A stretch of DNA of 64,000 nucleotides from Thalia democratica (taxonomy: Eukaryota): NCBI GenBank assembly GCA_965202585.1, contig OZ241830.1:67084001-67148000 (forward strand). The letters are read 5' to 3'. The notes under the pieces are model-generated. The model was not told where the DNA came from and did not search any database. It saw only the letters and a program-made list of their open reading frames with translations. A program made the position numbers and the translations under genes. Shown here piece after piece: positions 2,886 through 57,064 of this stretch. The first letter of the stretch is position 1, and every line of letters starts with the position of its first letter.

Positions 2886-2949
2886 GGGAGTTTTAGGTTT
2901 AAATTTCTGTAATTTTTTTTCTTGGAGTAAAAGAAGCAGGTTTTGCAAT

Positions 2950-25897: not shown

Positions 25898-26071
25898 GTA
25901 TGATTCATTTACCAATCAAATCAACATCGTTTATAAAACTTAAGAGTTGGTTAGAACACATTCAGACTTAAATAACAGAAAAATGTAGAAAGTTCAAAAA
26001 ATCTCCTCGCCGCCGGAACTCGCTCCGCCCCTGCACATCTCCACGTCGTCTGACCGGTCCACGCCGATCCG

Positions 26072-26492
26072 TCTCCTCGTCTCACCCAACGGTCTCTTGG
26101 CGCCACGGAATCCGTCTCCTTGCCTCACCCAGCGGTCTCTTGGCCCTACGGAACCGTCTCCTTGCCTCACCCAGCGGTCTCTTGGCCCTACGGAACCGTC
26201 TCCTTGCCTCAACCAGCGGTCTCTTGGCCCTACGGAACCCGTCTCCTTGCCTCAACCAGCGGTCTCTTGGCCCTACGGAACCGTCTCCTTGCCTCAACCA
26301 GCGGTCTCTTGGCCCTACGGAACCGTCTCCTTGCCTCACCCAGCGGTCTCTTGGCCCTACGGAACCCGTCTCCTTGCCTCAACCAGCGGTCTCTTGGCCC
26401 TACGGAACCGTCTCCTTGCCTCACCCAGCGGTCTCTTGGCCCTACGGAACCGTCTCCTTGCCTCACCCAGCGGTCTCTTGGCGCTACGGAAT
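26072..26492. repeat. 42-bp VNTR, 10 units
   Basis: Same unit as 3985-4447, one unit fewer. Confidence 0.95.
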
Positions 26493-29400
26493 CCTCTGAT
26501 CCGTCTCTTCATACATCTTCTCTTTCATCTCCTCGTTCCTCACCTCGTTCATAAGTCTCCTCTACCGCTCCTCGCCGATTCGTTTCTCGAGCCGTTCGTG
26601 CGAAAGTGCAATTAGAATGTACGTCACTATTTGATATCAATTTTAAAAACAAGTTAAAACATTAAAAGATAAAAAAATTCAATTTACAAACTTATATGCT
26701 ACTAGTTAGCAACAACATTACATTAATCCATTAGTCTATTTTTATTTTAACTTTAAAGTTTCTTAAGTTTCAAAGTAAATGAGAAACATTTTTGGCTCCC
26801 ATCAATATACATTAATTCTCTACAAGTTTTAAAATAAAAAACATTTCACATTTTACACGAATTAGTTGACAAAACAAGCATTCACATGCGTCTCAAAAGT
26901 TTAAACTTGTTTTTGTAAAAATACAAAGCCAGTAAACTTGTACTGATTTTAAAAAACTTTCATATTAAAACAAATTTTAAACAAAGTTCTTTTTAGTTTT
27001 CAGATTTTAAATACCGGATAAGACATTTCATAGCTCGAATGACCTTGTTAAAAAATGTGTTTTTTTTTAAGTACGGTTAAATCTAAAACAACAAAAAACA
27101 TGCCAATAAAGTTTGTTACAAGCAATTAACAAGGTCATTGTAAAAAAAAACTTTAAATATTATAGTTTAAAGTTTGAACATAACATTGTTGCTAAATATA
27201 AAACTAAATTAAGTTTAATAAACTTAAGAAATTTCACTTCAATAACCGATTATGCACTCGAAAACAAGTTTTAATAACCTCATACAAATATTATTACAAG
27301 GACGAATGAAAAAACAACAATGTTTTTACATGCAGTTTAAAAAGTTTATTATCCCTTATAGTTCAAATTAAACGATTGTTCGAAAACAAAACAATTAAAC
27401 TTTACAGTTGCTAACTTTTATAGACGTTTAAAACTCTTTTTGTTATAAGAAAGTTTTATTATTAGAAGCCTTTAGTTTCATTTTAATTTTTAATAAAATG
27501 TTTAAAACGATTGAACGATATTTAATTAATTTGACAAAACGCGGAACAACTTGAAAACAAGACTAACTTTTGTTTAAACTTGCTCGTACAAGTTTAAAAC
27601 TCATTTTGAAAAACGCTTCAACAATGAATTGCAATAATATCTACACAACAAATACATTTTAGTTCTAACACATGTCCATTAGCTTTTCCCAAACCACTTT
27701 AACATAAAATTCAACACAATAAAGCTAATTACTTTTTGCAAAAAACAACACAAATCTCTCACAAACTCGAACTACTTAGTTGATTTTCCAACTAGAAATT
27801 TTAAACTCATTTTTAAAACTTTACAGACCAGATGACTGGGTTAAATAAATGCCCTTAAGTTTATCGAATTTATAATATTATTAAATAAGGTTTATTTTAC
27901 TCTGTTTTCAAGTCACCATCTACAAAACGTAAAAATTTTAATGAAGGTATCTGTGTTCAATTCCAGTTATAAATAACTGGACGTCCGGGTCACCATGTCG
28001 CTACCTGGTTAAAGATTCTACTTATATATACTATTTTTGGCCTGGTTTAATACGCAACGTGCGCTCCAACTTACAAAGTAGAAGTCCCCAAGATAACGCT
28101 TAAATTATAGTTGACTTAAATGAACTAATATGAATTACTTACTATTTACTAAATGTTTGATAAATCAGTTACTTATACTAATTTAAACTGAGTTCGAATT
28201 TGTGATCATGAATATATTTACAATGAATTTGCGAAACGAAAAGATGATAAAAAACTGCACAACATTACACTAGAATAACAGAAACTAAACACTACATGTT
28301 TAAACCAAACTCAAAAAACATTCTAAAATCGAAATCACTTCAACAAGATCGAAACCATTAAAACTTAAGTGCAGCAAAAAGCTGCACTGAGTTCAGGCCG
28401 TTCAATGAAGTAGAAACTAGAAAAACTGAACTGAACTAAACCAATTACGCGATATTCTTAATTTATACTTGCTTGAAAAAAAGAAGAAAGTAAAAAAGAG
28501 ACAATTACCGCTCACGCGGTACAGCTTCAAGAAGTAAACAACTCAGAAAAAACCCCTAATTAGAAACAACTCTAAACCGCTACCAAGCGGTTACAGTTCT
28601 AACCATTTTTTATTTTTGCATGTGGAATAAAGCTGACGAAAAGAAAATAACAAGTTTTGTTTTGCTAATTTTTTATATATATTAAAGAAAATAGATATTA
28701 AGTATACAAAAGAAAAAATCTAAACCAGGAACAATAACTTGCAGGTTGTGCTTAAAAGCAGCTTTATTAATGCTTGAATCTAGAACAAATTGCGACAGTT
28801 TTTAAGGAAAACAAAGAGACATGAGGCTTTAAACTTAAATTTATGCCAAAACTAACAGATGAACTAAGAGAATTCTAAAATAAAATGATAAACTTAATCA
28901 CACAGGTAAAGTTTACAAAAATAAGTTACAGCTTCCAAGATAAACTAGTAAATGATCTTATAATAAGTAAAACCGAAACCGGGAACGGGTCAGAAAAGCA
29001 CGGGTGACACTTTAGCACGGTGTGACACTTTAGCACGGGGTGACACTTTAGCACGGGTAGACACTTTAGCACGGAGTGACAATTTAGCACTAAATTGTGC
29101 CTAAATTGCATAATCATTTTATAATTAATAAATTTAATTGTAAACGTTTTATAAAATACAAATTTTACACGTATTTAATTAAATTATTTAAAACTATCGA
29201 TGGTGCTTAAGTGTCACTCCGTGCTTAAGAATCATTTTGTGCAAAAGAATCAATCAGTGATAAAGTTACACTCCGTGTTAAAGTGTCACCCCGTGCTAAA
29301 GAGACACTCCGTGCTAAAGTGTCACCCCGTGCTAAAGTGACGCCGTGCTAAAGTGTCACCCCGTGCTAAAGTGTCACTAAAGGTGTTTTTAAATTTTTTT

Positions 29401-32227
29401 CTAGTACTCGGCTGTACTAAAACAGTATTCCGCATGTTTTTAGAATAATTTTTTTTTTGATTCTAAAATTTTTTTGTTATAAGTATTTTGTATTTGTAAC
29501 TTTGATATTTTCACTAAGAGACAGCTTTTCAGCAGTGAAATTTAAGATATAAAATCAGTTTAGCAGATTGAAAGTAAAGAGACAGCTTTTCAGCAGTTGT
29601 AGAAAATTAAGAAAATGAATAAATATAATCAGTTTAGCAGATTGTAAGTAAAGAGACAGCTTTCCAGCATTTAGTAAAAGTGCAGAAGGCTGTGTCTTTG
29701 TTAAACTTTGTTTTATCTTTGAGATCAAATTTAAATTTGTTACATGAAACAAATTAAGAGGTAGAGCGAAGAAATTTAAACGTGAAATAGAGGTAAAAGA
29801 AACAAAACAACTCATCTTAATAGAAAAAATTAGAATTAGCAATAGATGAGCTAAATCAAGAAACCGGAAAAGAAATTTTTTTCAAACTATTTAAGAGTCA
29901 TTAGTAAACAAGTAAAAGTTATTAAAATGGCTTTACCAGGTGGTCAAAGGATTAATACAAGACATAAAATCTCGAGTTGCTTCATATGACGAACTACAAT
30001 TAGCTGTAGCAAGAGAAAAGCGAAAATTGAATCCTTGCGCACGTCTTCAAATCGATGTTACCGAAAATCTCGTCAATAAATGGAATGGAAGAGAAGTCTT
30101 TAACACTGCAAATGTGTTTGAAGGTTAGATAAGCTAACAGCATAATAACATTTTAAACAGTTTAGTTGTTAGTTCTTCAATAACTTCTTAAAATTTTACC
30201 TATATTTAAAGGCAACGATGAACAATCTGAAACATTCTAAAATAAATATACTTTCAAAAGCTCCGTGTCAAAAATAAATGATGAACCAGACCATTTTAAA
30301 GCTGATATTATCAAAGAACTGTGGAGTAAATTTTATTTTTGCTGCAGGCCTAATTGAAATCACAGAATATGAAAAAGATTTAATAAGATATTGCTGCAAA
30401 ACAGTACTGTTCCACGAAAGTGAACCATGGTCGAAAAAGCATAACAATCTTCGATGTACCGATGGGAAGCATCCATGGCGCAGAAATTCGCGAACTGGTT
30501 GGCTTATATACCTTAAATAAATTAAAGTAGGAAAAGATCTTTAGTGATGTTATCTTTGGCATATAGTGTGATGATGGTCTAGCAGTGGTGGACATTCAAC
30601 CGGGACCAAGTATGAAGAGTATAGTAATAAAAAAACAGTTGGTCAATGAGAAGTGGTTCCATATTGATGCTTTTGAAACAAAATTACAACTGTGGACATT
30701 AGGGTGCATCTGTTGCCTCGACCTTAGAGTTAAGCTTAGTCTAGCTTTTTGTGCGTGACAAATCACTTTAAAAAAAAAAAACCTTCCTATAACCTAATAA
30801 AAACACATAACGTAGAAGGAAAAATTCAAAAATTTATCAAAAAATTTTAAAAGGTCTGTTAAAATATTGTTTTTAGGTATACGGCTATACTAAAATAATT
30901 TCCCGCATGCTTTTCACAATAAAATAGTTTTTATTCAAAAATTTTCTTGTTATAAGAATTTTTCTATTTTTATACTTTGATATCTTTACTAAGAAACAGC
31001 TTTTCAGCAGTTGTAGAAAATTAAGAAATTGAAGATATAAAATCAGTTTAGCAGATTGTAAGTAAAGAGACAGTTTTTCAGCATTTGGTAAAGGTGCAGA
31101 AGGTTGTTAAACGAGTTTTTCTTTAACATGTACTTTAAATTAAACTTGTTACAAGAAACAAATTAGCAATTATAAGCGAAATACAAATAAGATATAAGAG
31201 AATAAATTCAAACGCGAAACAGAGGTTAAAGAAACAAGACTTATCTTGGCAGAAAAAATTAGAATTAGCAATAGCTAAGCTAAATCAAGAAACCGGATAA
31301 GAAAAGGTGTGAATTATTTAAAAGTCATTAGTAAACAAGTAAAAGTTATTAAAATGGCCTTACCAGGTGATCAAAGGATTAACACAAGACATATAATTTC
31401 GTTTTGCTTCATATGACGGACGACAATTAGCTGTAGCAAGAGAAAAGCTGAGATTTAATCCGTGCGCATGTCTTCACATTGATGTTACTGGAAATCTAAT
31501 CAATTAAAGGAATGGAAGAAAAGAAGTCTTTAACACTGCAAGTGTGATGAAGGTTAGATAAGCTAATAGCATAATTATTATTTTAAACAGCTTAGTTGTA
31601 AGTTCTTCCACAACTACTTGAAATTTTACCTATGTTTATAAGCAACGATGAACGATCTGAAACATACTAAAAATAAGTTTACTTTTAAGAGCTGCGTGTC
31701 AAAAATAAATGATAAACATTTTAAAGCTGATATTACCAAAGAACTGTGGAGTAAATTTTATGATTCTACAATGACAAAGGTAAAAACTGAGAAACAACTG
31801 GATAGAAGTCATAAAATGAAAAAGTGCTTAAATTAGTTAAGCATAAATTTTGTTTTTTTATTTCATGTCATTCGTAGTATAATACAAAAATATTTTTAAA
31901 TGTCGTTTAGTCGGCCATAACAGCAATAGCCATTATCGTAATAATCAAAACACATCTTTCTTAATCTAAAATGCAGTTAGACCAAAGAAGCGGAAAGTCA
32001 ATAGGGTGACCTAATTTACTTTCGCCCCCTTCGTTGGTCAAACATATGGGCTAAAGAATGAAATTGAATGAAAACTCCTTTAATTTTGCTTCTAATTTTT
32101 AAAGTTTAAAAATAATTTACTTTTAAATGCTGCGTGTCAAAAAAAAAAAGATGAATCAGACCATTTTAAGCTGATATTATCAAAAAACTGTGTAGTAAAT
32201 TTTATGATTCTACAATGAAAAAGGTAA

Positions 32228-33251
32228 CCCCAGCCTGATGATACAAAATATGCTGCTATTTTAAAACTGACATTAGTCGAAAGGAACAAAACACAGATGC
32301 AAAGATTCTAGAGAGAGAAGCAGATTTAACAAAAAGGATAGTGAGTTTCAAAAGATGCACTAAAACAATGGGTCCAAAAGAGAAGCATGATTTGGAGGAG
32401 GATTTGAAAAAAGACATTGTAAAATATAACAAAGAAGTTGACGAGGTCAATAAAGAGAGGATGAAATTACATCCTATAGTCAAGAGTAATTTTTTAACAA
32501 AATGGCAAACAGGATTAGATAAGAAATGGAAAAATGCTCAGGAAGAAATAAGAAAAAAGCAGAGTTAGTAAGTAAGTATGAAAATGATATTATACCTGCC
32601 GAGGATGGTAAGGACTATGTTGATATCCCTTCTTGAGTGCAGGTCCCAGTCTTGTCTCTGATATTAGGAGCAGGATAGAAACCCTATCTACATCAAGCCA
32701 ACAATCTCAGCAAGTTGCTGTGCGTAAGCAATTGACTCTAGAACAATTCAAAGAATACCATAAAAGGGTTAGCGATGATATGTCAATGATCGAATATAAA
32801 GGAGACATCACTATGTCTGATGTTGAATTCTACTCTTACGATAGACTTCTAGTGTTTCAGAGGATTTGGGAGAGGGCCAAAAGCAGGGAAATCATAGTTA
32901 GCTTAGATGACAAAACTTTTGGCACAGACGTTTTCATTTGGCTCGTTCGAGGAACAAACTTTGAAAGAATCAAGAGAGGCCTAAGCGACAAGACTAAAAA
33001 TTGCTTGAATACTCTGATCAGGAGGTACGGCTTTAAGGGTCGTTCGATTAACCAAGAAACCAAGACGATGGAACGTCTGCAAAATGATGATCTAACAGTT
33101 TCTCGTTTCTGTGACATTTATCCCATGAGAGTGTGGGCCGTGTGGAATAATCCCAAGTTGACAGAAAGACCAGACTTCTTAACATTTACTCATCTCACTA
33201 AGGCTGAAAAAAAATTTATCAGAAATTTTAGGTGTCCCTCGTTGCCTTACC
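32228..33251 (+). pseudogene. Endogenous viral element: phenuivirus-like (Bunyavirales) nucleocapsid, N-terminal and central part
   Basis: VEFYSYDRLLVF..WLVRGTNFERIKRGLSDKTKNCLNTLIRRYGFKG..NDDLTVSRF aligns to phlebovirus N EFAYQGFDARRV..ALTRGNKPRRMMMKMSKEGKATVEALINKYKLKE..RDELTLSRV. An upstream charged helical extension is readable through frameshifts. GC is higher than the flanks; no introns. Confidence 0.8.
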
Positions 33252-33881
33252 CTACCCCCAGAGCAAGCAAGAACAGGTGTAGAAGAAATTGTTTGAGAAT
33301 AAAGAGATATTTGAATACATAAAAAAAAAAGAGATACATCAAGAAAATGTAAATATTACATACTTACTAATACTTAGTACTGTACAGTTTTATAACTTTT
33401 ATACAAACAGTTATATGAACCAACCGTTGGTAATTGGTGATATGGTGAGTGTACGTATTAATAAAGTGATATTATGTCATTTGTTTTCAAAAATGAATTA
33501 AGATTTGTTAGAAGTCTCAAATGGTAAAATGTTTGACAGTTGTTTTTTTTTTGCAATATTTTATACATTTATCTCTTTTTGTTTAATTAAATGTTTAATA
33601 TTATAATCATTTTAGTTTCATCTTTTTCATAATTACAAAAAACCTTACTTATGTCACTAGGAAATGATGAAGGATCTAAAAAATTTTCCTAAAAACCCAG
33701 CAATCACCCTCCCTTGGTAATTGCTGAGGTGGTGAGTGTACGTATTAATAAAGTGATGTTACGTCATTTATTTTCAAAAATAAATGAAGATTTGTTAGAA
33801 GTTTCAAATGGAATGAAAGAGAAGTCTTTAACACTGCAAGTGTGTTTAAAGGTTAGATAAGTTATATAGTGTATATAGAAA

Positions 33882-34260
33882 TATCTTACTAAGGAAATTA
33901 GAATGTTATGGTGTGAGAGGAAAAATGCATCTACAAATCAGTTCATATCTATATGAAAGGAAACAGTTCGTCAGCTTTAGAGGATATGAATCAACCTGTG
34001 AAACAAGTTAAGTTGGGGTACCACAAGGCTCAGTATTAGGACCGTTGTTATTTCCTAATACACATAAACGACTTACAAAATAATACTAGTCTTAAAGTCC
34101 TCAACTTTGCAGATGATACAATGTTATACAAGACATTCACGAAAGACACATTACATACCTAAATAACAGTAAAAACTTTAACACAAAACTAAAAAAGGTA
34201 TAACATTGGCTTATGGGAAACAAACTTAAACTAAACCTTAATAAAACCAGAATATTGATA
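33882..34260 (+). mobile_element. CR1/L2-type LINE reverse transcriptase fragment
   Basis: ILLRKLECYGVRG..SSYLYERKQFV..GVPQGSVLGPLLF/LIHINDL..NFADDTMLY. Confidence 0.92.
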
Positions 34261-34639
34261 AGAAGTCCTTAATATGCAACTTGTAGTATATCCAGTTTTA
34301 AAGATAATTTCATCAGAGCAAGAAAATTAATCACAGGCAATTTAAAACGCTTCTCGAAAATTCAGACTCAGACTATACCGATATTTATAAAACATACAGC
34401 TGTACGCTGGTTGAGTTTAGGAAAATCTATTCAAAACCAGGAAAAATTTCAATTATCTAATGTTAAAAATTAGAAAATCTAAAGTAACAGTTAATACAAA
34501 CAAATATATTGCTTTTGACTAAACTTGCCAACTAAGTAAGTTAGTTGGCAAAGACAGCTTCTTAAGACATAAGTTTTCTAACTCAAGTATTCCATCTGAG
34601 TCATTTTTAAGCTTGTGGTTTAAGCTTGATTTTAGTCTT

Positions 34640-35050
34640 TGAAAAAATATTATGCAAATTATCAAAATGAAGAAGTTTTCAACAACATCAAAGGCTTATA
34701 CCAAAATGCATTAAACAAAAGTTATTTCAAATATAATTTAACTCCAAACAATTTAACAGTACCAATATTAAAAAATATGAAAAAAAAATTGCATTTAGTA
34801 TTACCTCCAACCCCTTTTGTACATCTGTACAGACCAAAATTGGCAAGCGTTTCCCAGAATTGATAGATAGACTTTTTAAGAAGGACAGCTTTTACCACAA
34901 AATAATTAACAGAAATTGCATAAAAATACCATATTGCTGCACACCAAACGTTATGGCCATTATAAATTAACACAACAAAAAGCTTATGAAGAAATCAGAT
35001 AAAAACGAAAAACTTTGCAATTGTAGATCAAAAACAAACTGCTCCGTGGA
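34640..35050 (+). mobile_element. PLE fragment (thumb/linker into GIY-YIG region)
   Basis: YQNALNKSYFKYNL..TKIGKRF..INRN..YCCTPNVMAII..HNKKL..CNCRSKTNC. Second copy at ~41380-41650. Confidence 0.8.
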
Positions 35051-36479
35051 TATTTCTATTTGAATAAGAATTGGAAATGTTTGTTTTTAATAAACGAAAG
35101 ATCTTTTCGAAGTGTTTGTAAAAAACTGAGACTGATTTTTGAATGGATCTAACCATTTTTTATCTTTGCCATGTGGAATAAAGCTTACAAAAAAAGATTA
35201 ACAAGTTTTGTTTTGCTAATTTCTAATATATATTAAAGAAAATAGATATTAATTTATACAAAAGAAAAAATCTAAACCAGGAACAATAACATGCAGGTTG
35301 TGCTTAAAAGCAGCTTTATTGATACTTGAATCTGGTACAAATTGCGACAGTTTTTGAGGAAAACAAAGAGACAAGGCTTTGAATATACATTTATGCCAGA
35401 ACTAACAGACGAACTAAGAGAATTCTAATATAAAATGATAAACTTAATCAAACAGGTAAAATTTACAAAAAAAAAGTTACAGCTTCCAAGATAAACTAGT
35501 AAATGATCTTATAATAAGTAAAACCGAAACCATAACCTGCTGACAAAACAAAAAATTATTACAAAGTTCCAAAATAAGAATTTAAGAACCTATAACTAAA
35601 ATCTTTAATAAAAGCATATAAAATGAGTGGTAACAGAAGACAATAATGGGAATTTTAAACTATTTGTTTGTTCCATCTATTTTATTTATTTTAAGCTTTT
35701 TGAAAAAAACCGTAAATGTTGTAAAAGTTAAAAAAAGTTCTAAAGTTTTAATAAAACAAATTATAGTAAGTTTGAATTGAAAGACGAAAAGCATAATGAG
35801 TGCAGTGTTTTTAATTCTAGTAACCCACATAATACATCTAAAGCGATTATAAATAAATACTTAGGTATTAAATCTATCAAAATAAGAAAAATTGGAAGAT
35901 TAAAAAAACTATATATTGGTTAGCAAGTTAGTTAGTAGTACCGAATTAAAAAGAACTTAGATCATGGATTAAAAGCCATCAGTGCTGTAGAAAAAGCATA
36001 GTGTGTATGTAGTTTACCAATCTAAACAACTCACGTTGGACTAAAAGAATTAAGATAATATTGAGCATAAAGTCTGATTCAGCAGAGGATATCAGTTTGG
36101 CTACAACTGCACCAAAAACTTACTTAAAATGGTTTTGGATTGTAGTTTTTTCATTATTTTAATTCAACGAAATTGTTTACATGCGAAATCATATAGTATT
36201 TTTTTGATATCATTTCAGGAAAGTGAACCATGTATAGTGATCGGCAGTTTTAATCTAAAGACGAACACTGAAATATAGCACTATGACTTTTTTTCAATAA
36301 AACCACCAAGAAAATGACATTTTCAGTAAACACAGATATTTTTTCTTAAAAACATAAAAATCAGAAAAACTACAAATGCAATGTAAATCAAGGAATAAAT
36401 TTTATTTTAATTGTCGATCAAATATGACCTTGCAAAAATTAGTTTAGAAACGTGTGTAACAATTGTTCATGACACCAAC

Positions 36480-36730
36480 ATATTGCATGTTTAGCAGTAT
36501 GCATGACAAATAACTGGAAAGCATGGTGAAGCACTAGCATTAGCTAAAAATTATTGCGGAATAAGTAAGGACGAAATCGACATAGTAGTTCACTGCTGCA
36601 AATTATTCCTTATTTACAGCGATTGTGCGTGGTCGAAGAAGGATATGGATGGCAATTTTGATACACTGCAGGAAAGTTTTCATGGTGCAGAAGTATGCGA
36701 ACTAGTAGGGTTACTTATACTCAATCAAGA
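36480..36730 (+). mobile_element. PLE RT fragment (different subfamily)
   Basis: ALALAKNYCGISKDEIDIVVHCCK..WSKKDMDGNFD..SFHGAEVCELVGLLIL. Confidence 0.8.
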
Positions 36731-37434
36731 AATAAAAGATTATATAAATCAAGAAACCGGATAAGAAAATGTGTAATACTATTTAAAAGTCATTAGTAAA
36801 CAAGTAAAAGTTATTAAAATGGCTTTACCAGGTGGTCAAAGGATTAATACAAGACATATAATTTCGTGTTCTTTCATACGACGAACGACAATTAGCTGTA
36901 GCAAGAGAAAAGCTGAGATTGAATCCGTGCGCATGTCTTCACACCGATGTTACCGGAAATCTTGTCATTAAATGGAATGGAAGAGAAGTCTTTAACACTG
37001 CAAGTGTGTTTAATGGTCAGTTAGGATATTTTTATTAGCACAATTAATATTTTAAACAGTCTAGTTGATAGTACTTTTATAACTACCTATGTTTAAAGGC
37101 AACAATGAACGATCTGAAACATACTAAAAATAAATTTACTTTTAAGAGCTGCGTGTCAAAAATAAATGATAAACCATTTTAAAGCTGATATTACCAAATA
37201 ATTGAGGAGTAAATTTTATTATTCTACAATGAAAAAGGTAAAAACTGCGAAATATCTGGATAGAAGTCATAAAATGTAAAACTTCTTAGATTATTTAAGT
37301 ATCAATTTCGTTTTATTTTTTCAGGTTATTTGTAATATAACACAAAAATATTTTTTAAATGTTGTTTAGTCGGCCATAACAGCAATAGCCATTATCGTAA
37401 AAATCACACAATATCTCTCTAAATCTAAAATGCA

Positions 37435-37740
37435 GTCAATCAAAGAAGCGGAAAGTCAATACGGTGACCTAGTTTACTTTTGCCCTCTTCGTTGGTCAAG
37501 TCGTGGTTTAATGTTTTCACGAATCTATGGGCTAAAGAATGAAACTGCATCATTTTTTAGAAATATAAATATAAATACATGTTTTTTAAATAAAACTGGG
37601 TATCTAATTTAACAATTCTGATCTCACATCGCGTTTCAACAAACTTAACTTGTTATAAAAATTTAAAAAACAGTTGGTCAATGAGATGTGGTTCCATATT
37701 GATGCTTTTGAAACAAAATTACAACTGTGGACATTAGGGT
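37435..37740 (+). mobile_element. hAT transposase fragment (GTF2IRD2/EPM2AIP1-like), recurrent module
   Basis: EAESQYGDLVYFCPLRWSSRGLMFSRIYGLKNE..W.SNL..LNL..QLVNEMWFHIDAFETKLQLW. Partial copies at ~8590, 9905, 30635, 31980, 39105, 41875, 47625 and 63612. Confidence 0.85.
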
Positions 37741-37799
37741 GCATCTGTTGCCTCGACCTTAGAGTTAAGCTTAGCTAAGAGTTAATAAAAATTTGATAA

Positions 37800-38300
37800 G
37801 TAAATAAAAATAGCAAGATACCAAAACTCGAAAAAAAAACAAGCGTTCTTTACAATTAAACATCACAAAGAAAACTTCCCCAATAAAATCGAATACAGAG
37901 TCATAAACCCAACTAAATCACCTTTCACTAAACACTCAAAAATCTTAATAGGTAAATTTAATTGTATAATACTAAAACACTCTAAATTAAACCAATGGGA
38001 ATATACATGCGAAGTGATCACCTGGTTTGAAAATTCAAAATTTAACAAAAACTACAGATTTATAAAATTCGACATCAATAAATTTTACCCAAGTATTACT
38101 AAAAATTATTTAATTAAAGCATTAGAATAAGCTGAAAATTTTTACCCAATAACAGACAAAGAAATGAATCTAATAATGCTCTCTTGTAAAGCAATTTTAA
38201 CACATATAAAAACCAAACCTGGGAAAAAATAAGTTCAAACCAGTTTTTCAATAAAAGTATGGGATCATTTAAGGGGGCAGAAATCTACGATTTAATAGAT
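37800..38300 (+). mobile_element. PLE RT fragment
   Basis: AFFTIKHHKENFPNKIEYRVINPTKS..LNQW..VITWF..FIKFDINKFYPSIT..MGSFKGAEI. Paralogous copy at ~42200-42680. Confidence 0.9.
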
Positions 38301-38629
38301 AAATGGACAAAAATCCCTAAAAGGTTTGTTAAAATATTTTATTTAAGTATTCGGCTATACTAAAACAATTTCCCGCATGCTTTTCAGAATGATATATTTT
38401 TGATACTATAACTTTCTTGTTATTAGTATTTTCTTTTTGCTTCTTTGGTATTTTCATTAAGAGACAGCTTTTCAGCAGTGGTAGATAATTTATAAGTTTG
38501 TGCCTTTGTTAAAATGAGTTTTTCTTTGACATTTACTTTAAATTAAATTTGTTACAGGAAACAAAATAGGAAATTTAAGCGAAATACAGATATCAAACGC
38601 GAAGCAGAGGTTTAAGAAACAAAACTCAT

Positions 38630-39040
38630 GAGTGTTTAGTTCCAAGTGTGCGTGAAGAAATTATGAACCATTTGGAAATACTATCCAAGTCATTTGACGG
38701 ATATTTCAAAAAAGGAGAACTGGAAATTTCTGAAGAATGAATGATAAATCCATATTCTTTTAATTTGAATCACATGTCCGATGATGAATCGTTAAAAGAT
38801 GAACTTAATAAATTATGCATGAACTGTTTTCTCAAAATGCAGTTTGAAAGCGAAACTCTTGAACAATACTGGTGTTGTTCAATGAATATGTTTCCAAAAC
38901 TTAGCTAAAAAGCACTAAGTACTCTCATTTTATTCGTGACGACTTACTTGTGCGAGTCTGGATTTAGTACTATTTTGTCAACAAAAACTAAATCAAGAAA
39001 CCGCTTGAATGCACAGGCAGACATGCGAATTGCCATCATA
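38630..39040 (+). mobile_element. hAT transposase C-terminal dimerisation domain (Buster/ZBED8-like)
   Basis: YWCCSMNMFPKLS*KALSTLILFVTTYLCESGFSTILSTKTKSRNRLNAQADMRIAI. Confidence 0.92.
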
Positions 39041-39479
39041 TAAAAAGAGTTTAGCAGATTAAAGAATAAGTTTGAGATTAAAGAAATATTTAAACGAGAT
39101 CAAAGAAGCAGAAAGTCAATACGGTGACCTAGTTTAATTTTGCCCCCTTCGTTGGCAAGTCGTGGTTTAATGTTTTCACGAATCTATGGGCTAAAGAATG
39201 AAATTTCATCATTTCTTAAAGGTATAAATATATGTTTTTAAAAAATAAAACTGGATATCTAATTTAACGATTCTGATAGATTTAATATCGCATTTTAACA
39301 AGCATAACTTATTATAACTATTATATTGTAACAAGCAAAAAACAGTTGGTCAGTGAGATGTAGTTCCATGTTGGTGCTTTTAAAACAAAATCATGAGTAC
39401 AGAGAGATCATTTAAAAGAAAACAACTACACTCACTTCCTAACCCTTGAAGCTAAACCTGTTTGACATATTTCATTTAT

Positions 39480-40030
39480 AGTGACCTTGATCTTACTGGT
39501 GCAGATGCTTTTATAACGATATAGGACCACAAAAAACACTTCCCTTTTAACACTGAGTGTAGAGTCTTAAACCCAGAAAAAAATGAGTTTGGCCGCATTA
39601 GTAAGATCATTCTAGAAAAAGCGGTCAGAAATATAAGACCAAAAATGCCCCTAGTACAACTGAAAAACTCTCTAGATGTAATAACATGGTTTAAAAAAAA
39701 ATTGAAGAGAAAAATAAAAAAATATTTTATAACATTTGACATTGTAAACTTCTATCTGAGTATTAAACATCATAACCAAATAAAAGCCATAAACTTTACA
39801 AAGAAGTATACAGAAATAGAAGATAAGGACATTAAGTTAATTGAACACACATGCAAAACAATTTTAACCTATGACAATAAAAATGATGAAAATGCATCAT
39901 TCGATGTACCGATGGGCTCTTTTTTCGGCGCTGAGCTCTGAGACCTTGTGGGACTATACTTCCTACACCGCCTTAAATATATTTATAACGAGATCAGCTG
40001 ATACAGAGATGACGGCTTCGCAATTGTAGA
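39480..40030 (+). mobile_element. PLE RT fragment
   Basis: VITWF..FITFDIVNFYLSI..IEHTCKTIL..FDVPMGSFFGAEL*DLVGL..YRDDGFAIV. Confidence 0.9.
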
Positions 40031-42829
40031 CGAAAAATAGTCGAATATATTTCTTTAATAGTAGATGAAACAACGTCTATTTGTATAAATCACAAGCAGT
40101 TTAAAACTTTAGAGTTAAAAAAGCTACATGATAGAATTATGAACACATTTTAAAGAAATAAGCTGACAATGGATGTTGAAAATATAAAAATGACAAAGAA
40201 AATATTCAAAGTTGTAAAAGGACTCATCAGAGTTTAAACAAAGACATCAAGAACTCAAGGATTGTTTCAGTTTTAAAGTCAACCAAAAAAACTATTTTAA
40301 GCTTTTTATTGTGAATAAATTTTAAAATGAATTGGCATCACTTGGTAAAAAAGATGAAAACGAAAAAAAAAACGTTATTTAAAAGATGTGGTACTTAAAT
40401 ATTAATAAAACCTTTTATTATTTCGTCATACTTCAAAGTTTAACGTCTTATCAACTTTAGTTTAAATAATCACCATAATCTCTCTCTCTTTATTTGGATA
40501 TATATAAAAACTTTGATTTTAAATTATTTTGGGAGGTGACAAAAAGAGCGCATAAAATAGCACATGGTAATAACCCTGTTTGTAGGTTGTACTTTTAAGA
40601 ATCAACAACCGCTATGTATGCATTAAAAAAGGAAGGTTGTTTAAATAAGAGGAGCGAATTCATATCGTCTTGTCGACATATGAAAAAGCTCCTCTTAAAA
40701 TAAAATAAATTTTGAAGTATTTAACTGTTGTCTTAGTGAATTTCAGTTGTTTTATTAGTTAGATGGAAGATTGATTTTTGTACTGAATTTTTGTAACGCT
40801 TAATATTACGTCATACTGTTTTTTGTTTTTTTGCATAACTTTTACATCTTTGTTTAGTACAGTGCTTTTTATTTTGAATTTAACTGGCTTATGATTAGAG
40901 CTTTATGAAAAATTAAAGCATTATGAAACATATGTACCAGTAATTTTAAAATCGTACTTTTTCAATAAATTATTTAAAAGCCTTTCAAGTGAGCTCTGTA
41001 GGAGGTGTTCAACTTTGAACAATAACCTTACTTTACATCGGTTAGCCAATATTCATCTAGGAAATTAGTTATTATACCTTTGGTCAAGTTTGTTTTTTTT
41101 TAGTACAAAGTAATTCTGCTGTTTAAAATGAACTAAAATCCATAACAAATAGAGCTTCTTATATGAGTACTAAAGAGAGATGATGAAAAAGAATCAGTAT
41201 TTTTTTGATGGTAGAAATTAGAAAAAAAAGTTTCATTAGACATATTACATTGTGGCAGACCATCAAACAGCTTATTAGATTGAGATGTTGATTTCTTGTG
41301 TGAAAAACTGCTGTGGATGAAGACAAAAGCAAGAAACAATGTTTAGATATTTTGTTAAATGCTGAGTTTCTACTGAAATAAAGTTGTTTTTTAATCAATC
41401 TATTTAGAAGATCTTCTGCATAAGAATAAAATGCTAGAGTGACAGCATTTACCACAAAATAATTAACAGAAATCGTATAAAAATATCATATTGCTGCACA
41501 CCAAACGTTATGGCCCTTAAAAATTCACACAACAAAAAGCTTATGAAGAAATCAGATAAAAACGAAAAACTTTGCAACTGTAGATCAAAAACAAACTGTC
41601 TCGTGGATATTAAGTGTTGCCTAAATAACGTCATATATCAAGCTAATGTTTCCAAGTTTAGCAATTGTGATTAATGTTCAATGTATTAAATCAATTGAAG
41701 TAAAGATAATGGAGATTAAAATAGATAGTATATCGTAAGCTTCGGCAAAGATATTAGTTATTTCACCTTTAATTGAACATTTATTTTAATATCTAAGTAA
41801 TTCTGCTGTTAATAACGAACTAAAATCCATACGAATAGAACTTATTAGATAAGTACTAATGAGCGATGATGATTTGTTGGTCAAACATATGGGCTAAAGA
41901 ATGAAATTGCATCATTTCTTAAAAGTAAAAATTTATGTTTTCGAAAATTAAAACTGGATATCTAATTTAACAATTCTGATAGATCTCACATCGCATCTGA
42001 ACAAACTAAACTTAATATAAAAAGTAAAAAAATAGTTGGTCAATGAGATGTGGTTCCATATTGATGCTTTTGAAACAAAATTACAACTCTGGACATTAGG
42101 GTGCATATGTTGCCTCGACCTTGAAGTTAAGCTTAGTCTAGCTTTTTGTGGTGACAAATCACTTAAAAAACATAAAATTAGCATTTTATAACCTAATTAA
42201 AACACATAATGTTGAAGGCAAGATACCAAAAGTCGAAGAAAACAAGCGTTCTTTTCAATTTAAGATAAAGAAAAATTCTCCAATAAAATCGTAAACAGAG
42301 TCATAAACCTAAGTAAATCACCCTTCATCAAATACTCAAGAAACTTAATAAACAAAATTAATTGTACAATACGAAAACATTCTAAATTAAACCAATGGAA
42401 AAATACAGACGAAGTGATCACCTAGTTCGAATATTCAAAATTTAACAAAAACTACAGATTCATAAAATTCGATACTACCAAGTTTTACCCAAGTATAACT
42501 AAAAATAATTTAAGCATTCACTGAAAAATTTTACCAAATAACAGACTAAGAAATGAATCTAATAATACACTCTTGTATAGCAATTTTAACACATAAAACC
42601 AAACCTAGGAAAAACAAGTTCAAATCAGTTACTAAAAGTAAGTATGGGACCATTTGACGGTACAGAAATCTGCGAAGGAAAATCTTAAAATCAAAATTAA
42701 TAAGATTCACAGATCGTACAGGAATCTAACCAAATGTAAAATAGACAAGCAATGAAGTCTTGAAAGCGCTAAACAGTCATCTTTAAATGTAATTAATGCT
42801 AACGGATAATGGGGATGTCAATACAAAAT

Positions 42830-43450
42830 ATAGTTATTATTGTTAGTAAATAATAGAAAACAATTTATAGGTAGTCTTAAATATCTTAAAACAAACTTTA
42901 GAAATTTTTTAAGTAAAACTTTATAGGAAAGACCAAACCAAGAAGTCGTCATGGCTCGAGTGACTGTAACTCTAAGAAAAAGAATTAAATTTGGATGATG
43001 AACAGAGCACAATACCAAAGAAGAGTAAAAGAAAATTTGGTCAAGGTGAAGCATTTTACCAAATGAAAGTCAAAGTAAGAAGTTAATTTGTTAAACTTAA
43101 AACTTAAATTTTTTCTTATTTGTTTCTGAACAGGCTTTGCTTGCAATTTTAAAAGATAAAGTAATACAGGCTATTACCGTTAGTAATGTTACTTTAGGTA
43201 ATGTATCACCAATTTCATAGAATGAAGATGAAATAAGTATAGAAGAGGTAGACATAAAAAGTGGTAAAATAGAATGTATGCCTGAATATAATGATGATAT
43301 TTTTGTACATAATGATGAAAAGTCTGACCCGAATAATTCATATTTAATTATTTGTACTGGGATTTCATCCAAAGAAAACCTTAAAATAAGTAAACTTACT
43401 CCACCACAAGCTTTAAAACATATAGTTTCTGACAATTACACAATATAGTT
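42830..43450 (+). pseudogene. Intron-containing gene fragment of unknown identity
   Basis: ..GEAFYQMKVK|ALLAILKDK.. joined by a 59-nt GT-AG intron (43075-43133, gtaaga..tgaacag); internal stops on both sides. Confidence 0.45.
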
Positions 43451-44079
43451 GTTAGCTTTAATTTTGAATATAAAGTTGTTTTAAGGTAGATTCTTATAGT
43501 ATAAAATCAGTTGTAGATGAAACTTGTAAATTTATTCATGAATTAAACTCTAAGAATTTTTTCATATTATTTAAATTTCCAAATGAACTCATAAAAACTA
43601 AAAAAATTAACAAGCTCAAGATGAGGTAGGTTTTTGAAATAATCGAAGACATTTTAATCCCGATATGACAAAGTAAGGATTCTATTACTTACCAAAAAAT
43701 TATGTACTCATTTAATAGCATTACAGATATCTCATACAATGGTGAATGTCCATCTAACTGTTTCTGTCTTAAGCCAAAATTCATTAAAAAAATTAAAAAA
43801 GTTTTGAATGAAAACATATATAGGCCAAATCAGCTTACTATGAGTTTAATGATCTATTAAAAACCAGGAAAAATTTCAATTATCTAATGCTCAAAGTTAG
43901 AAAATCTAAAGAAGTAACAGTTAATACAAACAAATATATTGCTTTTGACCAATTTTGACAACTGACTAAGTTTGTTGGCAAATACAGCTTCTTAAGACCC
44001 AAGTATCTGAGGAAAAAAGTAATTTACCCTTTTTAGTTATTAGATCAAATATCAGTAGAATTGGATTACTTGATTTACA

Positions 44080-45459
44080 ATGTCACTATCAAGAGAGAGT
44101 TTCGCATTATGCGGTGTTGACGGCGTGGTCTACCAAGGATCCCTCAATACAGGAATGTGCAAGGAAAAACCTGATATGCCCAAAGAGTATTTTGATGCTC
44201 ACAAAAGCAAGCCAGTGATTCCAGTCTATACTATAAATGAGACTGATGATAATCTGAGAAACCTATTTAAGAAGATCAGAAATAGTATCGGCAAAGCTAA
44301 CAAGGAACTCAAGTCTGTGTCAGCTTTTATGTGGTACTTTATGGGTAAGATTGAGTCTACGTTGAAGAAGTCTTGGGTTGCCAACGGTCAATTGATAGGG
44401 AGTGAGGGACAAGTGATAACTCCAAAGTCTTTAATAAGTCCTGATCAAAAGATTTTGGAAATAGGTGTCGAGAGCGGAGTGGAAGTTTCAGAGGAGCAGG
44501 CATGGCAGTTATTCTGGGCACTCGTCGGAGCTTACAGACTCGCTTCTCTCAAGGGTAAGAGCGATTACTATGTAAAGGCAGTACAAACCAGAGTGATAGG
44601 ACATTTTAGGCTGTCTCCTTTTGAGGCGAGTGTTGGAGATACGACTCCCTTGACAATGGCTCCAATGTTAGATAAGTTAGAGTACACTGGGTTGATAGCG
44701 AGCCTCAACATGTTTTTCAATCGTTTCAGCGATCATGAGTTTGCCAGTTGCGGACTAGGCACATTATCTTCTAGATATAGAAACTGCGCCACCTTAACCA
44801 GTCTGATATCCTTCGCTTATCAAGTCAATAGAAAGTTTACAGAAGTGTTTGAACACTTTCCGTTTATGGAATTGGTTCCAGAACTTAGAAGACTTACTGA
44901 TCCTAATGAACAGGACGAGCCGGACTCGTATTCTCCGTACATAAAGGACTTCGGAATTTGCAAGGTATCTCCGTATTCATCAACTGCCAATCCTCTCATG
45001 TACACCCTGCTGCACATCACTGGCACTGCTCTAGGTCACGAGAGATCCATGAGAGCCGTAAGAGTCGGAGATGTGTCCAAAGACACATTATTGAGAATGG
45101 GGTGTATAGCTGCTATGTGCCTGAGAAATTATTCAGGTTATGAAATGATCGCTGCTAGCAATACAGAGCTTATGGAAGAAAGGAAAGCCGGTAGAAGAAG
45201 TGCAGAAGAGTATGCAACTGGACCTGAGCTTCTTAAGTATGATAGAGCTATAGCAGCTGGAACAAAGATTCCCCCAAGTTGGAAGCCTTGGTTTAGAACC
45301 GGGACTGGTTGGGATGTCTTGGAAATGCTCAGACACTCTGATGGGTTGTTTGACAGTTTCAGGAAGATGATAAAAGCCAAGATTTCATATTCCGAGATGA
45401 GACAGAATTCAATTGGCAAAATGGTACAAGAATATGTCACTGCTCCGGACTTGAGTTGA
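44080..45459 (+). CDS. N: Endogenous rhabdovirus nucleoprotein, intact 459-aa ORF
   Basis: NMFFNRFSDHEFASCGLGTLSSRYRNCATL..DSYSPYIKDFGICKVSPYSSTANP..RSMRA matches VSV N DMFFHMFKKHECASFRYGTIVSRFKDCAAL..DSYMPYLIDFGLSSKSPYSSVKNP..RARNA. Also AYRL vs LYRV. Length typical of rhabdoviral N; intronless; GC clearly higher than the flanks. Confidence 0.95.
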   Translation: MSLSRESFALCGVDGVVYQGSLNTGMCKEKPDMPKEYFDAHKSKPVIPVYTINETDDNLRNLFKKIRNSIGKANKELKSVSAFMWYFMGKIESTLKKSWVANGQLIGSEGQVITPKSLISPDQKILEIGVESGVEVSEEQAWQLFWALVGAYRLASLKGKSDYYVKAVQTRVIGHFRLSPFEASVGDTTPLTMAPMLDKLEYTGLIASLNMFFNRFSDHEFASCGLGTLSSRYRNCATLTSLISFAYQVNRKFTEVFEHFPFMELVPELRRLTDPNEQDEPDSYSPYIKDFGICKVSPYSSTANPLMYTLLHITGTALGHERSMRAVRVGDVSKDTLLRMGCIAAMCLRNYSGYEMIAASNTELMEERKAGRRSAEEYATGPELLKYDRAIAAGTKIPPSWKPWFRTGTGWDVLEMLRHSDGLFDSFRKMIKAKISYSEMRQNSIGKMVQEYVTAPDLS

Positions 45460-45491
45460 TCATAGGTTTAAGTTATAAGTTTGACCGTTCA

Positions 45492-45504
45492 CTAGAAAAA
45501 AAAA
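45492..45504 (+). terminator. Rhabdovirus-type gene-end/polyadenylation signal (CTAG-A9)
   Basis: ctagaaaaaaaaa lies 33 nt after the N stop codon and resembles the TATG(A7)/TAG(A7) transcription stop signals of Rhabdoviridae. Host AT-rich sequence follows immediately. Confidence 0.65.
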
Positions 45505-46144
45505 TATATTTTTTTTTTTGATAGAATTAGTTTGTATATTGAGGGTCCGATTGTTTATTCTACGGATTTCACCTTTTTTTTCTTACTGAGCAATTATGTA
45601 ATCGTTTAATTGTCAACAAGTTAGTCATAGTAACAATAGAATGTTATAAGCAAAAATAAAACACAAACAGTAATCTAGTTGGTCCTAGTAACAACAGAAT
45701 ATTATAATGAAAAATAAAAATAAACACTAATCAAACTAATATAAATGTGAAATTTAGCCTCATACTATTTATATTCTATACAAGATTATTATTTTATTCA
45801 AGCTATGATAACTTAAAAATTTCATCATAGCTATGTTTATTTTTAGAATTTGTTTAAAATCAAAAATGCCCAACAAATTTATAGAGTTCATTATTGAAGT
45901 TAAAGAAAAATTTCCAGAAGATATTTCAATAAATGATTTTGAAAAATTATTGTTAAAACTTAATGAATTTTATATTTTTATAAAAAAAAATTTAAAATGT
46001 TGAAAATATACTTGATTTAGATTTTTCTAAAGATTATTTATTTTTCTCTCACAGGGAATCAACAAATAGTTCACCTAGTACACATGGTGATCTTGACTCA
46101 GGTCCATCAAAATTGGTTAAGAAAGGATTGGTACCAAATCTACT

Positions 46145-46747
46145 AGAGGATCTGGGAGAGGGCAAAAAGCAAGGAAATCATAGTTAGCCTAGATGACAAA
46201 ACTTTTGGCACAGACGTTAATGACATCGTTTTCATTTGGCTCGTTCGAGGAACAAACTTTGAAAGAATCAAGAGAGGCCTAAGCGACAAGACTAAAAATC
46301 GCTTGAATACTCTGATCAGTAGGTACGGCTTTAAGGGTCGTTCGATCAACCAAGAAACTAAGGCGATGGAACGTCTGCAAAATGATGATCTTACAGTTTC
46401 TCGTTTCTATGATATTTATCCCATGAGAGTGTGGGCCGTGTGGAATAATCCCAAGTTGACAGAAAGACCAGACTTCTTAACATTTACTCATCTCACTAAG
46501 GCTGAAAAAGAATTTATCAGAAATTTTAGGTGTCCCTCATTGCCTTACCTTCAAAACAAAGGATGACGGTTCAAAAGACATCTCAGATTTTCGCAACATT
46601 CTTGTGACTCATGCTATTGTTCTGACTGATTTTGATCGACTAATGTTCTCATGGGTTAGGAAGAGAGAAAATATGCCTGATGAATTTAAACCTAGAATTG
46701 AGTTTATTCAGCAAATCATCAAGAAAAAGGCTAATAGAAGTCTTTAA
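46145..46747 (+). pseudogene. Endogenous phenuivirus-like nucleocapsid, central and C-terminal part
   Basis: About 400 bp near-identical to 32860-33251. After one frameshift it continues FKTKDDGSKDISDFRNILVTHAIVLTDFDRLMFSWVRK..KKKANRSL*, comparable to phlebovirus ILDAHSLYLLQFSRVIN. Confidence 0.8.
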
Positions 46748-47849
46748 TCAGCAATAGATGAGCTAAATCAAGAAACCGGATAAGAAAATATGTAAAACTA
46801 TTTAAAAGTCATTAGTAAACAGGTATGAGTTATTAAAATGGTTTTAAGAGGTGGTTAAAAGAGTAATACAAGACATAAAATTTCGTGTTGTTTCATATGA
46901 CGAACGACAATTAGCTGTAGCAAGGGAAAAGATAAAATTAAATCCTTGCGCACGTCTTTACATCGGTGTTACCGGAAATCTCGTCAATAAATGGAATGGA
47001 AGAGAAGTCTTTAACACTGCAAGTGTGTTCAAATGTTAGATAAGCTAATAGCATATTTAATTTTCTGGAAGTTTAGTTTTAGGCTCTTCGACAATTACTT
47101 GAAATACTACCTATGTTTATAAACAACAATGAACGATCTGAAACATACTAAAAATAAACTTACTTTTAGGAGCTACATATCAAAAATAAATGATAAACCA
47201 GACCATTTTAAAGCTGATATTACCAAAGAATTGTTGAGTAAACTTTATGATTCTACAATGAAAAAGGTAAAAACTGGAGTCATAAATGTAAAACTGCAAG
47301 ATAACTGGATAGGAGTCATAATATGTAAAATGCTTAAATCGTTAAGTATCAATTTTGTTTTATCTTTTCAGGTTATTTGTAGTATAAAACAAAAAAAAAT
47401 TCTAATTGTTGTTTTGTCGGCCACAGGGACGTAGCTAGCTCAAAAAAGTTACGAGTCTGCAAAAATTAAAACATCTGAAATAACGCGTGATAACGACCTA
47501 GCAGGAACACAGCAATTTAAACTACCTCTAATGTTATTAAATTTAATCTGAAAATATGCAGTTATGTTAATACATCAAAAATGGAATGTGGAAGTACGAG
47601 TGATAACTGTAAGGCAATTTAGTGAGATCAAAGAAGCGGAAAGTCAAAACGGTGACCTAATTTAATTTTCCCCCTTCGTTAGTCAAGTCATGATTTAATG
47701 TTATCACGAATATATGGGCTAAAGAATGAAATAGCATCATTTCTTAGAAGTAAAAATATAAAAATATACGTTTACGAAAATTAAAACTGGATATCTAATT
47801 TAACAATTCTGATAGATTTTGTATCGCATCTGAACAAAATTAACTTGTT

Positions 47850-48899: not shown

Positions 48900-50470
48900 T
48901 AAATAAAAACCAATGTGAAATACTTGTAAACTGGTATATGAAGATTTTAAATTTCATGAAAAGATGGCATAGGATGTTGCTCATCATTTGTCCATAGAAA
49001 GTGAAAAACATTAAATGAAAAAAAATTAACTTCACAGATCCAGATAACAGAAGGCTGATGAATGGTGATTGCAAATATTTCAAGTTCCAATTGAATTCAC
49101 TAGTGATGCTGAGATATAAAAAGAAAAAGATAGAGTATATTTTATCCAATTGAAAAGTTTAGATCAAAATGAACAGCTTCAAAAAAGTACACTTTTGCTG
49201 TAACTGATAGATTGCTTATTGATGATATGCCTTTGAAGTATAGAAATATACGGCTTGGAAAACGAAAAGTCCCCCCAGAAACCTACCAAGTTGTTCAAAA
49301 GCTTAAATCAATGCTTCACACATCTTAAGCTAAAAGATCGATTGCTGAAATTGCAAACACTGATCTTAGAAGAAATAAATTTGGTTCTTGGTAAGTTTAC
49401 AAACCTGACAAACCATATTATATGAACACTTTGCCAGCATCTTCTAAAAGTGACATACTAGATCCATACGGAGAAGCCATGGTTCTTTGCTTAAAATTTC
49501 CTCCGGCCAAGAAGAGTCTCTTCCTCAAGTATATTGTTTGCTTACCGGTTTCTGTGTGTGAGAAATGTTTTATAGAAAACCTAAAAACGGTTAGTAATAA
49601 CTGTCTCCGCCAAATCTTGTATCATAACAATGCAAGATGGAGGATGTTTCTGGACTTGAAAGTTCTTGGTAATTATGATACAGCCGCATACCAGACAGAA
49701 ATACCTTCTTATTTTAACACCTTCGGCGTTAGACGTGAAAGGACAATGGATCCAAGATTTCTGAGATGTATAGACGATTCTATTAGCCACATACTGACTA
49801 GGAAAGTGAGGAGCGTCGGTTGGCGGTACTCCAAAGCGCATGGGAATAGGGATAGGCAAAACTCAAGAGACACAGAATGGTTTGCACTGGCGCACATGAT
49901 GGGTGAACAAATCTACAAGAGACGTTTGTCTGATCATGAGTTGGATTGTTTGTCAAGCTATTCAGGGGTATGACACTTTTTGTCTTATCAGGTTAAGCTA
50001 TCTTGAGCAAGCAATAGATAACCTGTTGTAAGTTCTGGAATAGTATTGGGTTACAAGGGAGGGAAAAGAATTTAATGTTTGCTAACATCTTGTCCAATGA
50101 TTGAATTTTAGATTGTGCACTGATCAGAGTAAATTTGACCAGTAACAAGCCTATGATTGGATAGTATACGCGGTGAATAATTTAGTCAAACAGCTTTCTC
50201 TGAATAATCATCCTGGTTTATCCTCATGACTTACCTCTGTTTGTTGAGAAAGAGATTGAATCTCTATCACAAGTTTATATCTATGACAGGAGAACCAAGT
50301 TCATGTGAAAACATGGTATTCTTAGTGGTTATCGTTGAACTGCTCTCCTGGATCCTATTATTAACCGCGCTGCTACGCGGTGGGTTTTTGACAGACTGGT
50401 AGCTCTGGTTTGTTATGAGGTTTACCAAGGTGATGATGCTTCGGTACCATTCAAATGGAAAACTTAAACA
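48900..50470 (+). pseudogene. Endogenous toti-like dsRNA virus RdRp (decayed)
   Basis: Motifs occur in the correct order: WRMFLDLKVLGNY, motif A DQSKFDQ (50122-50142), motif B GILSGYR*TALLDPIIN (from 50315), motif C YQGDD (50423-50437). Several stops and frameshifts; the 5' boundary is uncertain. Confidence 0.85.
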
Positions 50471-56780: not shown

Positions 56781-57064
56781 TGCTTACCAAATTTAAAAAA
56801 ATTGAGGTACTTTTTTAAAACAGTTTAGTTGTTAATTTTTGTTTCACGACAATGTCAACAATAATTGTTTATAACTGTTATTATAGGCACAAGAAAATTA
56901 ACAATCATTTTAGAATATTACTTAGAATTCTTAGCTATTCGATGGTATCCTCAACAATGTCAAAATAGGAACTTAACTTAAAGATATACGTACTATTAGG
57001 AACTAAATTTAAAAAAAATGCTATACATACAAGTTACATAATGTTAGCAAAATTTTACTTTGTA

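Follow-up and report, generated by a model that had tools for sequence, protein, structure and literature searches.

Viruses of the family Phenuiviridae carry 2-8 negative-sense or ambisense segments for the nucleocapsid protein (N), L and often Gn/Gc, and their placement in the family is made by L-protein phylogeny (PMC12641553). Endogenous viral elements (EVEs) derived from phenui N have been described before, and so have long N proteins of phenui type. EVEs are concentrated in the PIWI-interacting RNA (piRNA) clusters of some arthropods and, in mosquitoes and ticks, such clusters hold phenui N together with other negative-strand fragments (PMC10675110, excerpt). Hantavirus N oligomerises via N-terminal coiled coils (PMC2925374, excerpt). 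Here we describe a 64,000-nucleotide stretch of the Thalia democratica genome (assembly GCA_965202585.1, contig OZ241830.1, positions 67,084,001 to 67,148,000, forward strand; hereafter the window), which holds two broken fragments of a phenuivirus-type N gene, both on the + strand: copy 1 at 32228-33251 and copy 2 at 46145-46745. The two copies are probably non-retroviral EVEs, dead fragments of a phenui-like (bunyavirus-type) N gene. We use the term phenui-like, and do not speak of a family member, because N fragments alone are present in the window.

The surviving pieces were delimited against five database relatives (P0001, P0002, P0003, P0017 and P0018; ENA/JGI, contigs of 1.7-4.6 kb), which belong to the same clade as the window copies and, unlike these, have open reading frames (ORFs) that remain open. 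Copy 1 spans approximately residues 41-388 of the 530-residue P0003 in four frames. Its first part (32228-32555, about P0003 residues 41-152, with a frame break near 32268) corresponds to the helical part of the N-terminal extension; next comes the beginning of the linker, read in a different frame (32556-32626, between breaks near 32555 and 32627), and then the remaining linker with the first two thirds of the core (32627-33251), which carries an in-frame 12-nt gap near 32930 and ends abruptly at about P0003 residue 388. Copy 2 covers approximately P0003 residues 255-453 and consists of a core block shared with copy 1 (46145-46549, about residues 255-388) and, past its only frame break near 46550, a further piece of the core (46550-46745, about residues 392-453) that is cut short of the C-terminus. 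No stop codon was found in the 538 homologous codons, and about 40 N-terminal and 75 C-terminal residues of P0003 are missing from both copies. An initial annotation of this DNA, made from the sequence alone, had assigned the N-terminus to copy 1 and the C-terminus to copy 2 and had merged them into a protein of about 400 residues. Its positions for both copies hold, whereas neither terminus is present. Since both ends are absent, those 400 residues represent the surviving span of a protein of about 530 residues, and the full-length relatives measure 517-530.

Each piece was recognisably similar to the relatives. Specifically, the helical part of copy 1, which includes a 108-residue frame (32242-32568) containing the charged peptide quoted in the initial annotation, was 36% identical to P0003 over 81 residues (E 2e-9, tblastn/blastp) and 32-33% identical to P0017 and P0018, while the short linker piece matched P0001 residues 10-33 at 12 of 24 positions and P0018 residues 143-164 at 9 of 22. 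The piece at 32627-33251 reached 61% identity to P0001 over 212 residues (E 9e-81). In copy 2, the shared block was identical to P0001 at 86 of 134 positions, and the piece at 46550-46745 was 54-61% identical to P0001 and P0018. The GC content of the viral pieces was 38-39%, compared to 29% in the surrounding DNA.

To the family profile Tenui_N (Pfam PF05733), copy 2 matched with an E value of 2.5e-5 and 24.4 bits, slightly short of the curated cut-off of 25 bits, and the core of copy 1 alone gave no Tenui_N match in Pfam. The relatives lie around the same threshold: P0002 passes it with 33.4 bits and P0001, P0003, P0017 and P0018 score 20-24. Seven distant matches were also above the cut-off. 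A homolog search returned 2 matches among 95 candidates, 16 proteins with E values of 0.001 or better came from a profile search against 1.84 billion representatives, and the last homolog search gave 7 matches among 7999 scored proteins, three of them new. The close relatives share 50-64% identity with the window copies over the core, P0001 and P0018 being the nearest. In the Protein Data Bank (PDB), the best sequence matches of the profile were phlebovirus and bandavirus N, at weak E values (0.04-0.14). The only match of copy 2 alone in the PDB sequence search, to SUMO (E 0.007), was rejected as chance.

An AlphaFold (AF2) model of P0003, built on a 16-row alignment (mean predicted local distance difference test, pLDDT, of 72), superposed with its residues 237-499 on residues 20-245 of the N of Rift Valley fever virus (RVFV), giving a Z score of 15.9 and a root-mean-square deviation (rmsd) of 3.5 over 217 aligned residues. 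Phlebovirus N occupied ranks 1-2 of 48,161 chains, with Z 15 against 9 for the next, and all PDB rows listed by Foldseek, as well as all named BFVD rows, were phenui- or bunya-like N or S-segment proteins. This model supports that the pieces belong to a phenui-type N lineage, as the initial annotation had proposed, and its further claim that the lineage is divergent agrees with the 11-18% identity to library N proteins. In the trees, the window copies and the database relatives formed one clade (support 100/99) separated from other Tenui_N proteins by a long stem (2.2-2.9). Both trees were built without the short proteins P0006, P0008, P0009, P0013 and P0019, and the second one also without P0004, P0007, P0010, P0012, P0015 and P0016.

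Compared to the structures of phlebovirus and bandavirus N (RVFV, 4h5m and 3lyf; Toscana virus, 4csf; SFTSV, 4j4r), P0003 has the same predicted core fold at 14-18% identity, its core carries insertions (263 residues spanned versus 226 in phlebovirus N), and it has about 215 extra residues at the N-terminus and about 30 at the C-terminus. Length in itself is not unusual. Among the 50 best BFVD matches, 15 were 400-692 residues long, which weakens the rarity that the initial annotation had implied for a long N. Lihan tick virus (477 residues), Ronne virus (479), Brassica coguvirus (536), Timbillica virus (622) and Blattodean phenui-related OKIAV261 (692) combine the same core fold with a similar or greater length; they are only 13-15% identical.

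The extension and the core are found in one open frame in P0003 (530 residues), P0017 (530) and P0018 (517, without a start Met), and P0006 (178 residues) carries part of the extension. The upstream frame of the window matched the long relatives at 32-36% identity, colinear with the core. None of 3000 shuffled sequences reached the score of the extension against P0003, P0017 or P0018, one of 3000 did so against P0006, and the match was the best of 417 window segments, with a score of 122 against 47 for the runner-up. In the structural register, residue 1 of RVFV N falls near P0003 residue 218, which gives a natural extension of about 215 residues, of which about 175 are kept in copy 1; this is in line with the upstream extension of about 170 residues noted initially. 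The extension is 44% charged and of low complexity, and its helical domain is charge-balanced and proline-poor. In the P0003 model, residues 1-164 form helices, including one of 100 residues, and confidence is then low up to about residue 245. Altogether, the structure model shows the N of the relatives as an ORF of about 530 residues with a predicted charged, all-helical domain of about 165 residues, a poorly predicted linker of about 60-70 residues, an RNA-binding core of phlebovirus fold and a tail of about 30 residues.

Several observations count against this architecture as a general, purely viral one. P0001 and P0002 begin at about P0003 residue 150 and have no helical domain, nor do they match the extension (66 and 2319 of 3000 shuffles scored as well), so the helical domain may not be universal. 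Both start with a Met at the same place, at the end of the long helix and near one of the breaks in copy 1; this common position could reflect an internal start site or truncated proteins. In addition, the P0017 extension resembled Pfam Transposase_29 (E 1.5e-4, 20.6 bits, cut-off 27), and the fold matches of the helical domain were generic (Z 9 or less). Likenesses to ESCRT-III, F-BAR and Shroom were rejected as generic helix matches (Z 6-9, rmsd up to 12). A rival reading takes the extension for a coiled coil of host or transposon origin that became fused accidentally or that the virus captured, as its charged, low-complexity composition, the sub-threshold transposase match and the host helical proteins among the fold matches (for example ESCRT-III CHMP1B, Z 7.5, rmsd 11) would suggest. 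We regard this as very improbable, given that three relatives, 51-85% alike in the core and 21-50% in the helical part, carry the extension in frame with their core, and that no Pfam transposase match was obtained with P0003, P0018 or the piece in the window. Likewise, the extension alone gave no family match (best Pfam E 3.7; NCBIfam E 0.02, far under the cut-off), no homologs were found among proteins of 59-189 residues (6 candidates), and an Atlas search with it gave no usable match. An ancient capture of the extension by the virus is conceivable. These results side with the initial annotation, according to which the extension is viral and not a host or transposon sequence.

What the helical domain does can be suggested by analogy only. 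Hantavirus N likewise has a charged helical domain ahead of its RNA-binding core. The two cores belong to different families, and the P0003-type helical domain is about twice as long as the hantavirus N-terminal coiled coil, which measures about 75 residues. No hantavirus chains were among the matches listed in the fold searches. By this analogy, the domain would serve in the virus as a coiled-coil arm that supplements the usual arm of phlebovirus N, and a role in oligomerisation or as a scaffold can be put forward tentatively, with the balance slightly against it.

Both copies are fragments of an RNA-virus gene in host DNA, with host flanks and signs of decay, and we read them as endogenous because of the GC contrast, the frame breaks and the sharp junctions with a host repeat. 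Copy 1 begins exactly at the cut base of a dispersed host repeat (32227/8), whose fragment at 32107-32227 abuts it and whose other copies continue differently at this base. Copy 2 ends where a member of the same family starts (46745/6); this member, at 46746-47423, is 81-85% identical to the copies at 7789, 29834, 31263 and 36734. Members of the family (31263-32227, 36734-37499, 46746-47423 and 7532-8291) are 80-87% alike and gave no Pfam match. When compared with eight relatives, the flanks at 33252-33430, 45460-46144, 32042-32227 and 46746-46950 gave nothing credible (19.6 bits at best). The hexamer CCCCAG, present at both ends of copy 1, was considered as a target-site duplication and rejected as probably chance, because the left one sits within the viral coding frame. 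Between copy 1 and the next repeat there is a unique piece of about 170 nt (33252-33423) that matches neither the relatives nor the rest of the window. Ahead of copy 2, the segment 46040-46144 has a splice-acceptor-like site (about 46054) followed by 90 nt of open frame with 38% GC, fused directly to copy 2.

Neither copy can make a full N, and any present role would be as RNA. Reading the copies as a domesticated host gene, or as an assembly artefact in which haplotypes were laid in tandem or viral reads were joined to host DNA, would account for the lack of stop codons, for the splice-acceptor-like site 90 nt before copy 2, for the presence of a 7.3-kb duplicate of 97.8% identity in the window and, if sequencing errors are assumed, for an excess of indels. 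We give this reading hardly any weight: each copy is truncated at both ends and the flanks differ, the putative exon opens a frame that does not run on in the N frame, and RNA-virus sequence sharply joined to host repeats is best taken as a real insertion.

The initial annotation had derived both copies from one integration that was later duplicated and differently truncated. A self-BLAST of the window returned one direct repeat between the copies (32859-33251 versus 46145-46549), with 93.6% identity across 405 columns, one 12-nt gap included (E 1e-177), in agreement with the roughly 400 bp of high identity reported there. Homology ceases at both ends of this block and the copies have no common flank. 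Its 129 gap-free codons contain 14 substitutions, 8 silent and 6 changing the amino acid. Under neutral copying, with the spectrum taken from the window's own segmental duplication (92 substitutions), the expected silent share is 27%, significantly less than the 8 of 14 observed (P 0.017), and over six models the silent excess gave P values of 0.003-0.061. Of the 6 amino-acid differences, 4 involve residues that are both found in five relatives (expected 9-11%, P 0.001-0.002). Taking the two kinds together, 12 of the 14 differences are of a tolerated kind, silent or with both residues in relatives (expected 34-41%, P 1e-4 to 8e-4), and the approximate ratio of nonsynonymous to synonymous substitution rates (dN/dS) between the copies is 0.2-0.4. 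The differences therefore look filtered by selection at the protein level, which points to divergence within the virus population and to two templates. We consider it probable that two closely related viral variants served as templates for the pieces and that each was captured separately at this locus.

Not every result favours two captures. The P value of 0.06 in the silent test was obtained with transitions only, the comparison with residues in relatives was devised after the data had been seen, and a test on variable columns (5 of 6, P 0.25-0.28) was not significant. The right end of copy 1 coincides with the viral position of the sole frame break in copy 2, for which the chance is about 1-2%, and coinciding breakpoints suit a single-locus history. 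Five indels accompany the absence of stops, more than expected from the host, where about 20 substitutions occur for each indel; the excess may stem from integration or from assembly errors, and neither history fits it well. A control ORF within the window was uninformative, with 3 differences only. The competing history is one integration that was later split and partly duplicated, the copies then drifting neutrally, for example where 13 kb entered through a staggered break or by means of recombination and produced an A-B...B-C arrangement. The layout is exactly this, direct and 13 kb apart, as an insertion with a long duplication leaves. Moreover, the shared breakpoint fits, the copies are sisters in both trees, if weakly or without resolution (84/86 in one, an open fork in the other), and the window holds other segmental duplications. 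It is nevertheless rather unlikely, since neutral drift does not predict that 12 of the 14 differences should be tolerated ones or a dN/dS as low as that found, and the host flank was not duplicated. The scenario of a single duplicated integration is thus disfavoured by the same tolerated differences and by the missing shared flank, and two captures from related variants remains our preferred reading.

The N copies are part of a co-oriented cluster of virus and transposon sequences on the + strand (29400-50600), in which about 4.4 of 21.2 kb are viral. The initial annotation had recognised the N copies within 32228-46747 and missed two further viral genes in the same 21 kb. One is an intact rhabdovirus N ORF of 459 residues (44080-45459, + strand; Pfam Rhabdo_ncap, E 2e-44), whose best solved match is the nucleocapsid 3pmk (E 6e-25) and which ends 690 bp before copy 2. 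About 35 nt downstream of it lies CTAG followed by an A-run, as if copied from an mRNA, which we take to resemble the rhabdoviral stop/poly(A) signal. Because it has no breaks, this ORF would be recent or maintained. The other is a broken toti-like (double-stranded-RNA-type) RNA-dependent RNA polymerase (RdRp) fragment (49237-50470, + strand), of which only 50207-50470 is supported, by a match to Pfam RdRP_4 (E 1.8e-4, 21.1 bits, cut-off 22) over a segment chosen after the motifs had been seen, the left edge being drawn from GC content and open frames. It had no PDB match, a wider read gave no Pfam match, and the upstream frame of 192 residues (49395-49973) matched no family.

The transposon debris in the cluster comprises Penelope-like reverse transcriptase (RT) pieces with Hydra-clade motifs, a CR1-like RT and a hAT piece. 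Hydra-clade Penelope-like elements have a DKT motif and a CxCX5C linker and occur also in molluscs, echinoderms and arthropods (PMC8557442, excerpt). The debris next to the N copies carries both motifs on the + strand, DKT at 35533 and CxCX5C at 35010 and 41567, together with an RVT_1 match (E 0.009), and the minus strand showed one chance-looking match for each. No hammerhead ribozyme reached the Rfam gathering score; three core-pattern matches all fell within viral DNA, and the elements are fragmentary. The second RT matched RVT_1 with E 1e-4, and we label it CR1-like tentatively, by its motifs.

The orientation of these sequences is strongly biased. All 36 internal repeat pairs within 29400-50600 are direct, 20 of 22 motif matches lie on the + strand, 2 of 21 plus-strand and 0 of 18 minus-strand chunks matched Pfam, and all six element types with a Pfam match, several of them sub-cut-off, are on the + strand, for which the chance of a single strand is about 0.03. 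Dense and co-oriented, the transposon and virus fragments have the layout of a unistrand cluster, and in Hydra the majority of the major piRNA clusters are confined to a single strand (PMC3592418, excerpt). Against such a reading, the motif patterns were written after the + strand had been read, and direct repeats also arise by local tandem duplication. From the sequence layout, we judge the chances evenly divided on whether the locus is a one-strand piRNA cluster read from the minus strand, giving antisense small RNAs. The viral RNAs would have been reverse-transcribed by host retroelement enzymes and then joined to transposon fragments. Capture at this one locus would have been repeated, bringing in phenui-like N, rhabdovirus N and toti-like RdRp in the same orientation, and transcription from the minus strand would yield small RNAs antisense to them. 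Beyond this, it is possible, although on the unlikely side, that the locus serves a non-arthropod animal as a viral archive of piRNA type, containing three RNA-virus lineages that include two strains of an undescribed family-level phenui-like virus with a hantavirus-like coiled-coil N domain.

Elsewhere in the window, a segmental (or haplotype) duplication of 98-99% pairs 2363-9615 with 24448-31662 and 1-1820 with 22632-24452. Within it lie a minus-strand ORF of 207 residues (GC about 40%), a fragment of a cold-shock domain (24752-24952, E 3e-15) and a tandem array of short period. Degenerate tandem repeats form large arrays, in either orientation, at 1-1010, 22200-23650 and 56350-61700. A Nudix hydrolase is present on the + strand in two pieces, 18112-18624 and 19265-19576 (Pfam E 4e-6 and 0.12); a host gene with two exons, or descent from a DNA virus, could explain them.

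As judged by titles and the beginnings of abstracts, no article on EVEs or bunyaviruses of cnidarians or Hydra, or on long phenui N, described this lineage or locus; most subscription journals and all supplements were outside the scope of this search, and the negative is weak evidence of absence. The accessible part of PMC10888975 holds nothing on phenui N extensions. Relatives may be named in the supplements of virus-discovery papers such as PMC11141596, PMC6085071 and PMC12277240.

The window links a clade of anonymous database proteins to the germline of an animal. It defines an N architecture of helical domain, linker and phlebovirus core, which is conserved even where the cores of relatives are only 51% alike. 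Mosquito EVEs typically neighbour long terminal repeat (LTR) elements, whereas the neighbours here are Penelope-like, CR1-like and hAT debris. The locus allows a direct test of whether, in animals other than arthropods, virus fragments give rise to antiviral piRNAs. If they do, this would be an EVE-based small-RNA antiviral memory with Penelope-like, not LTR, partners.

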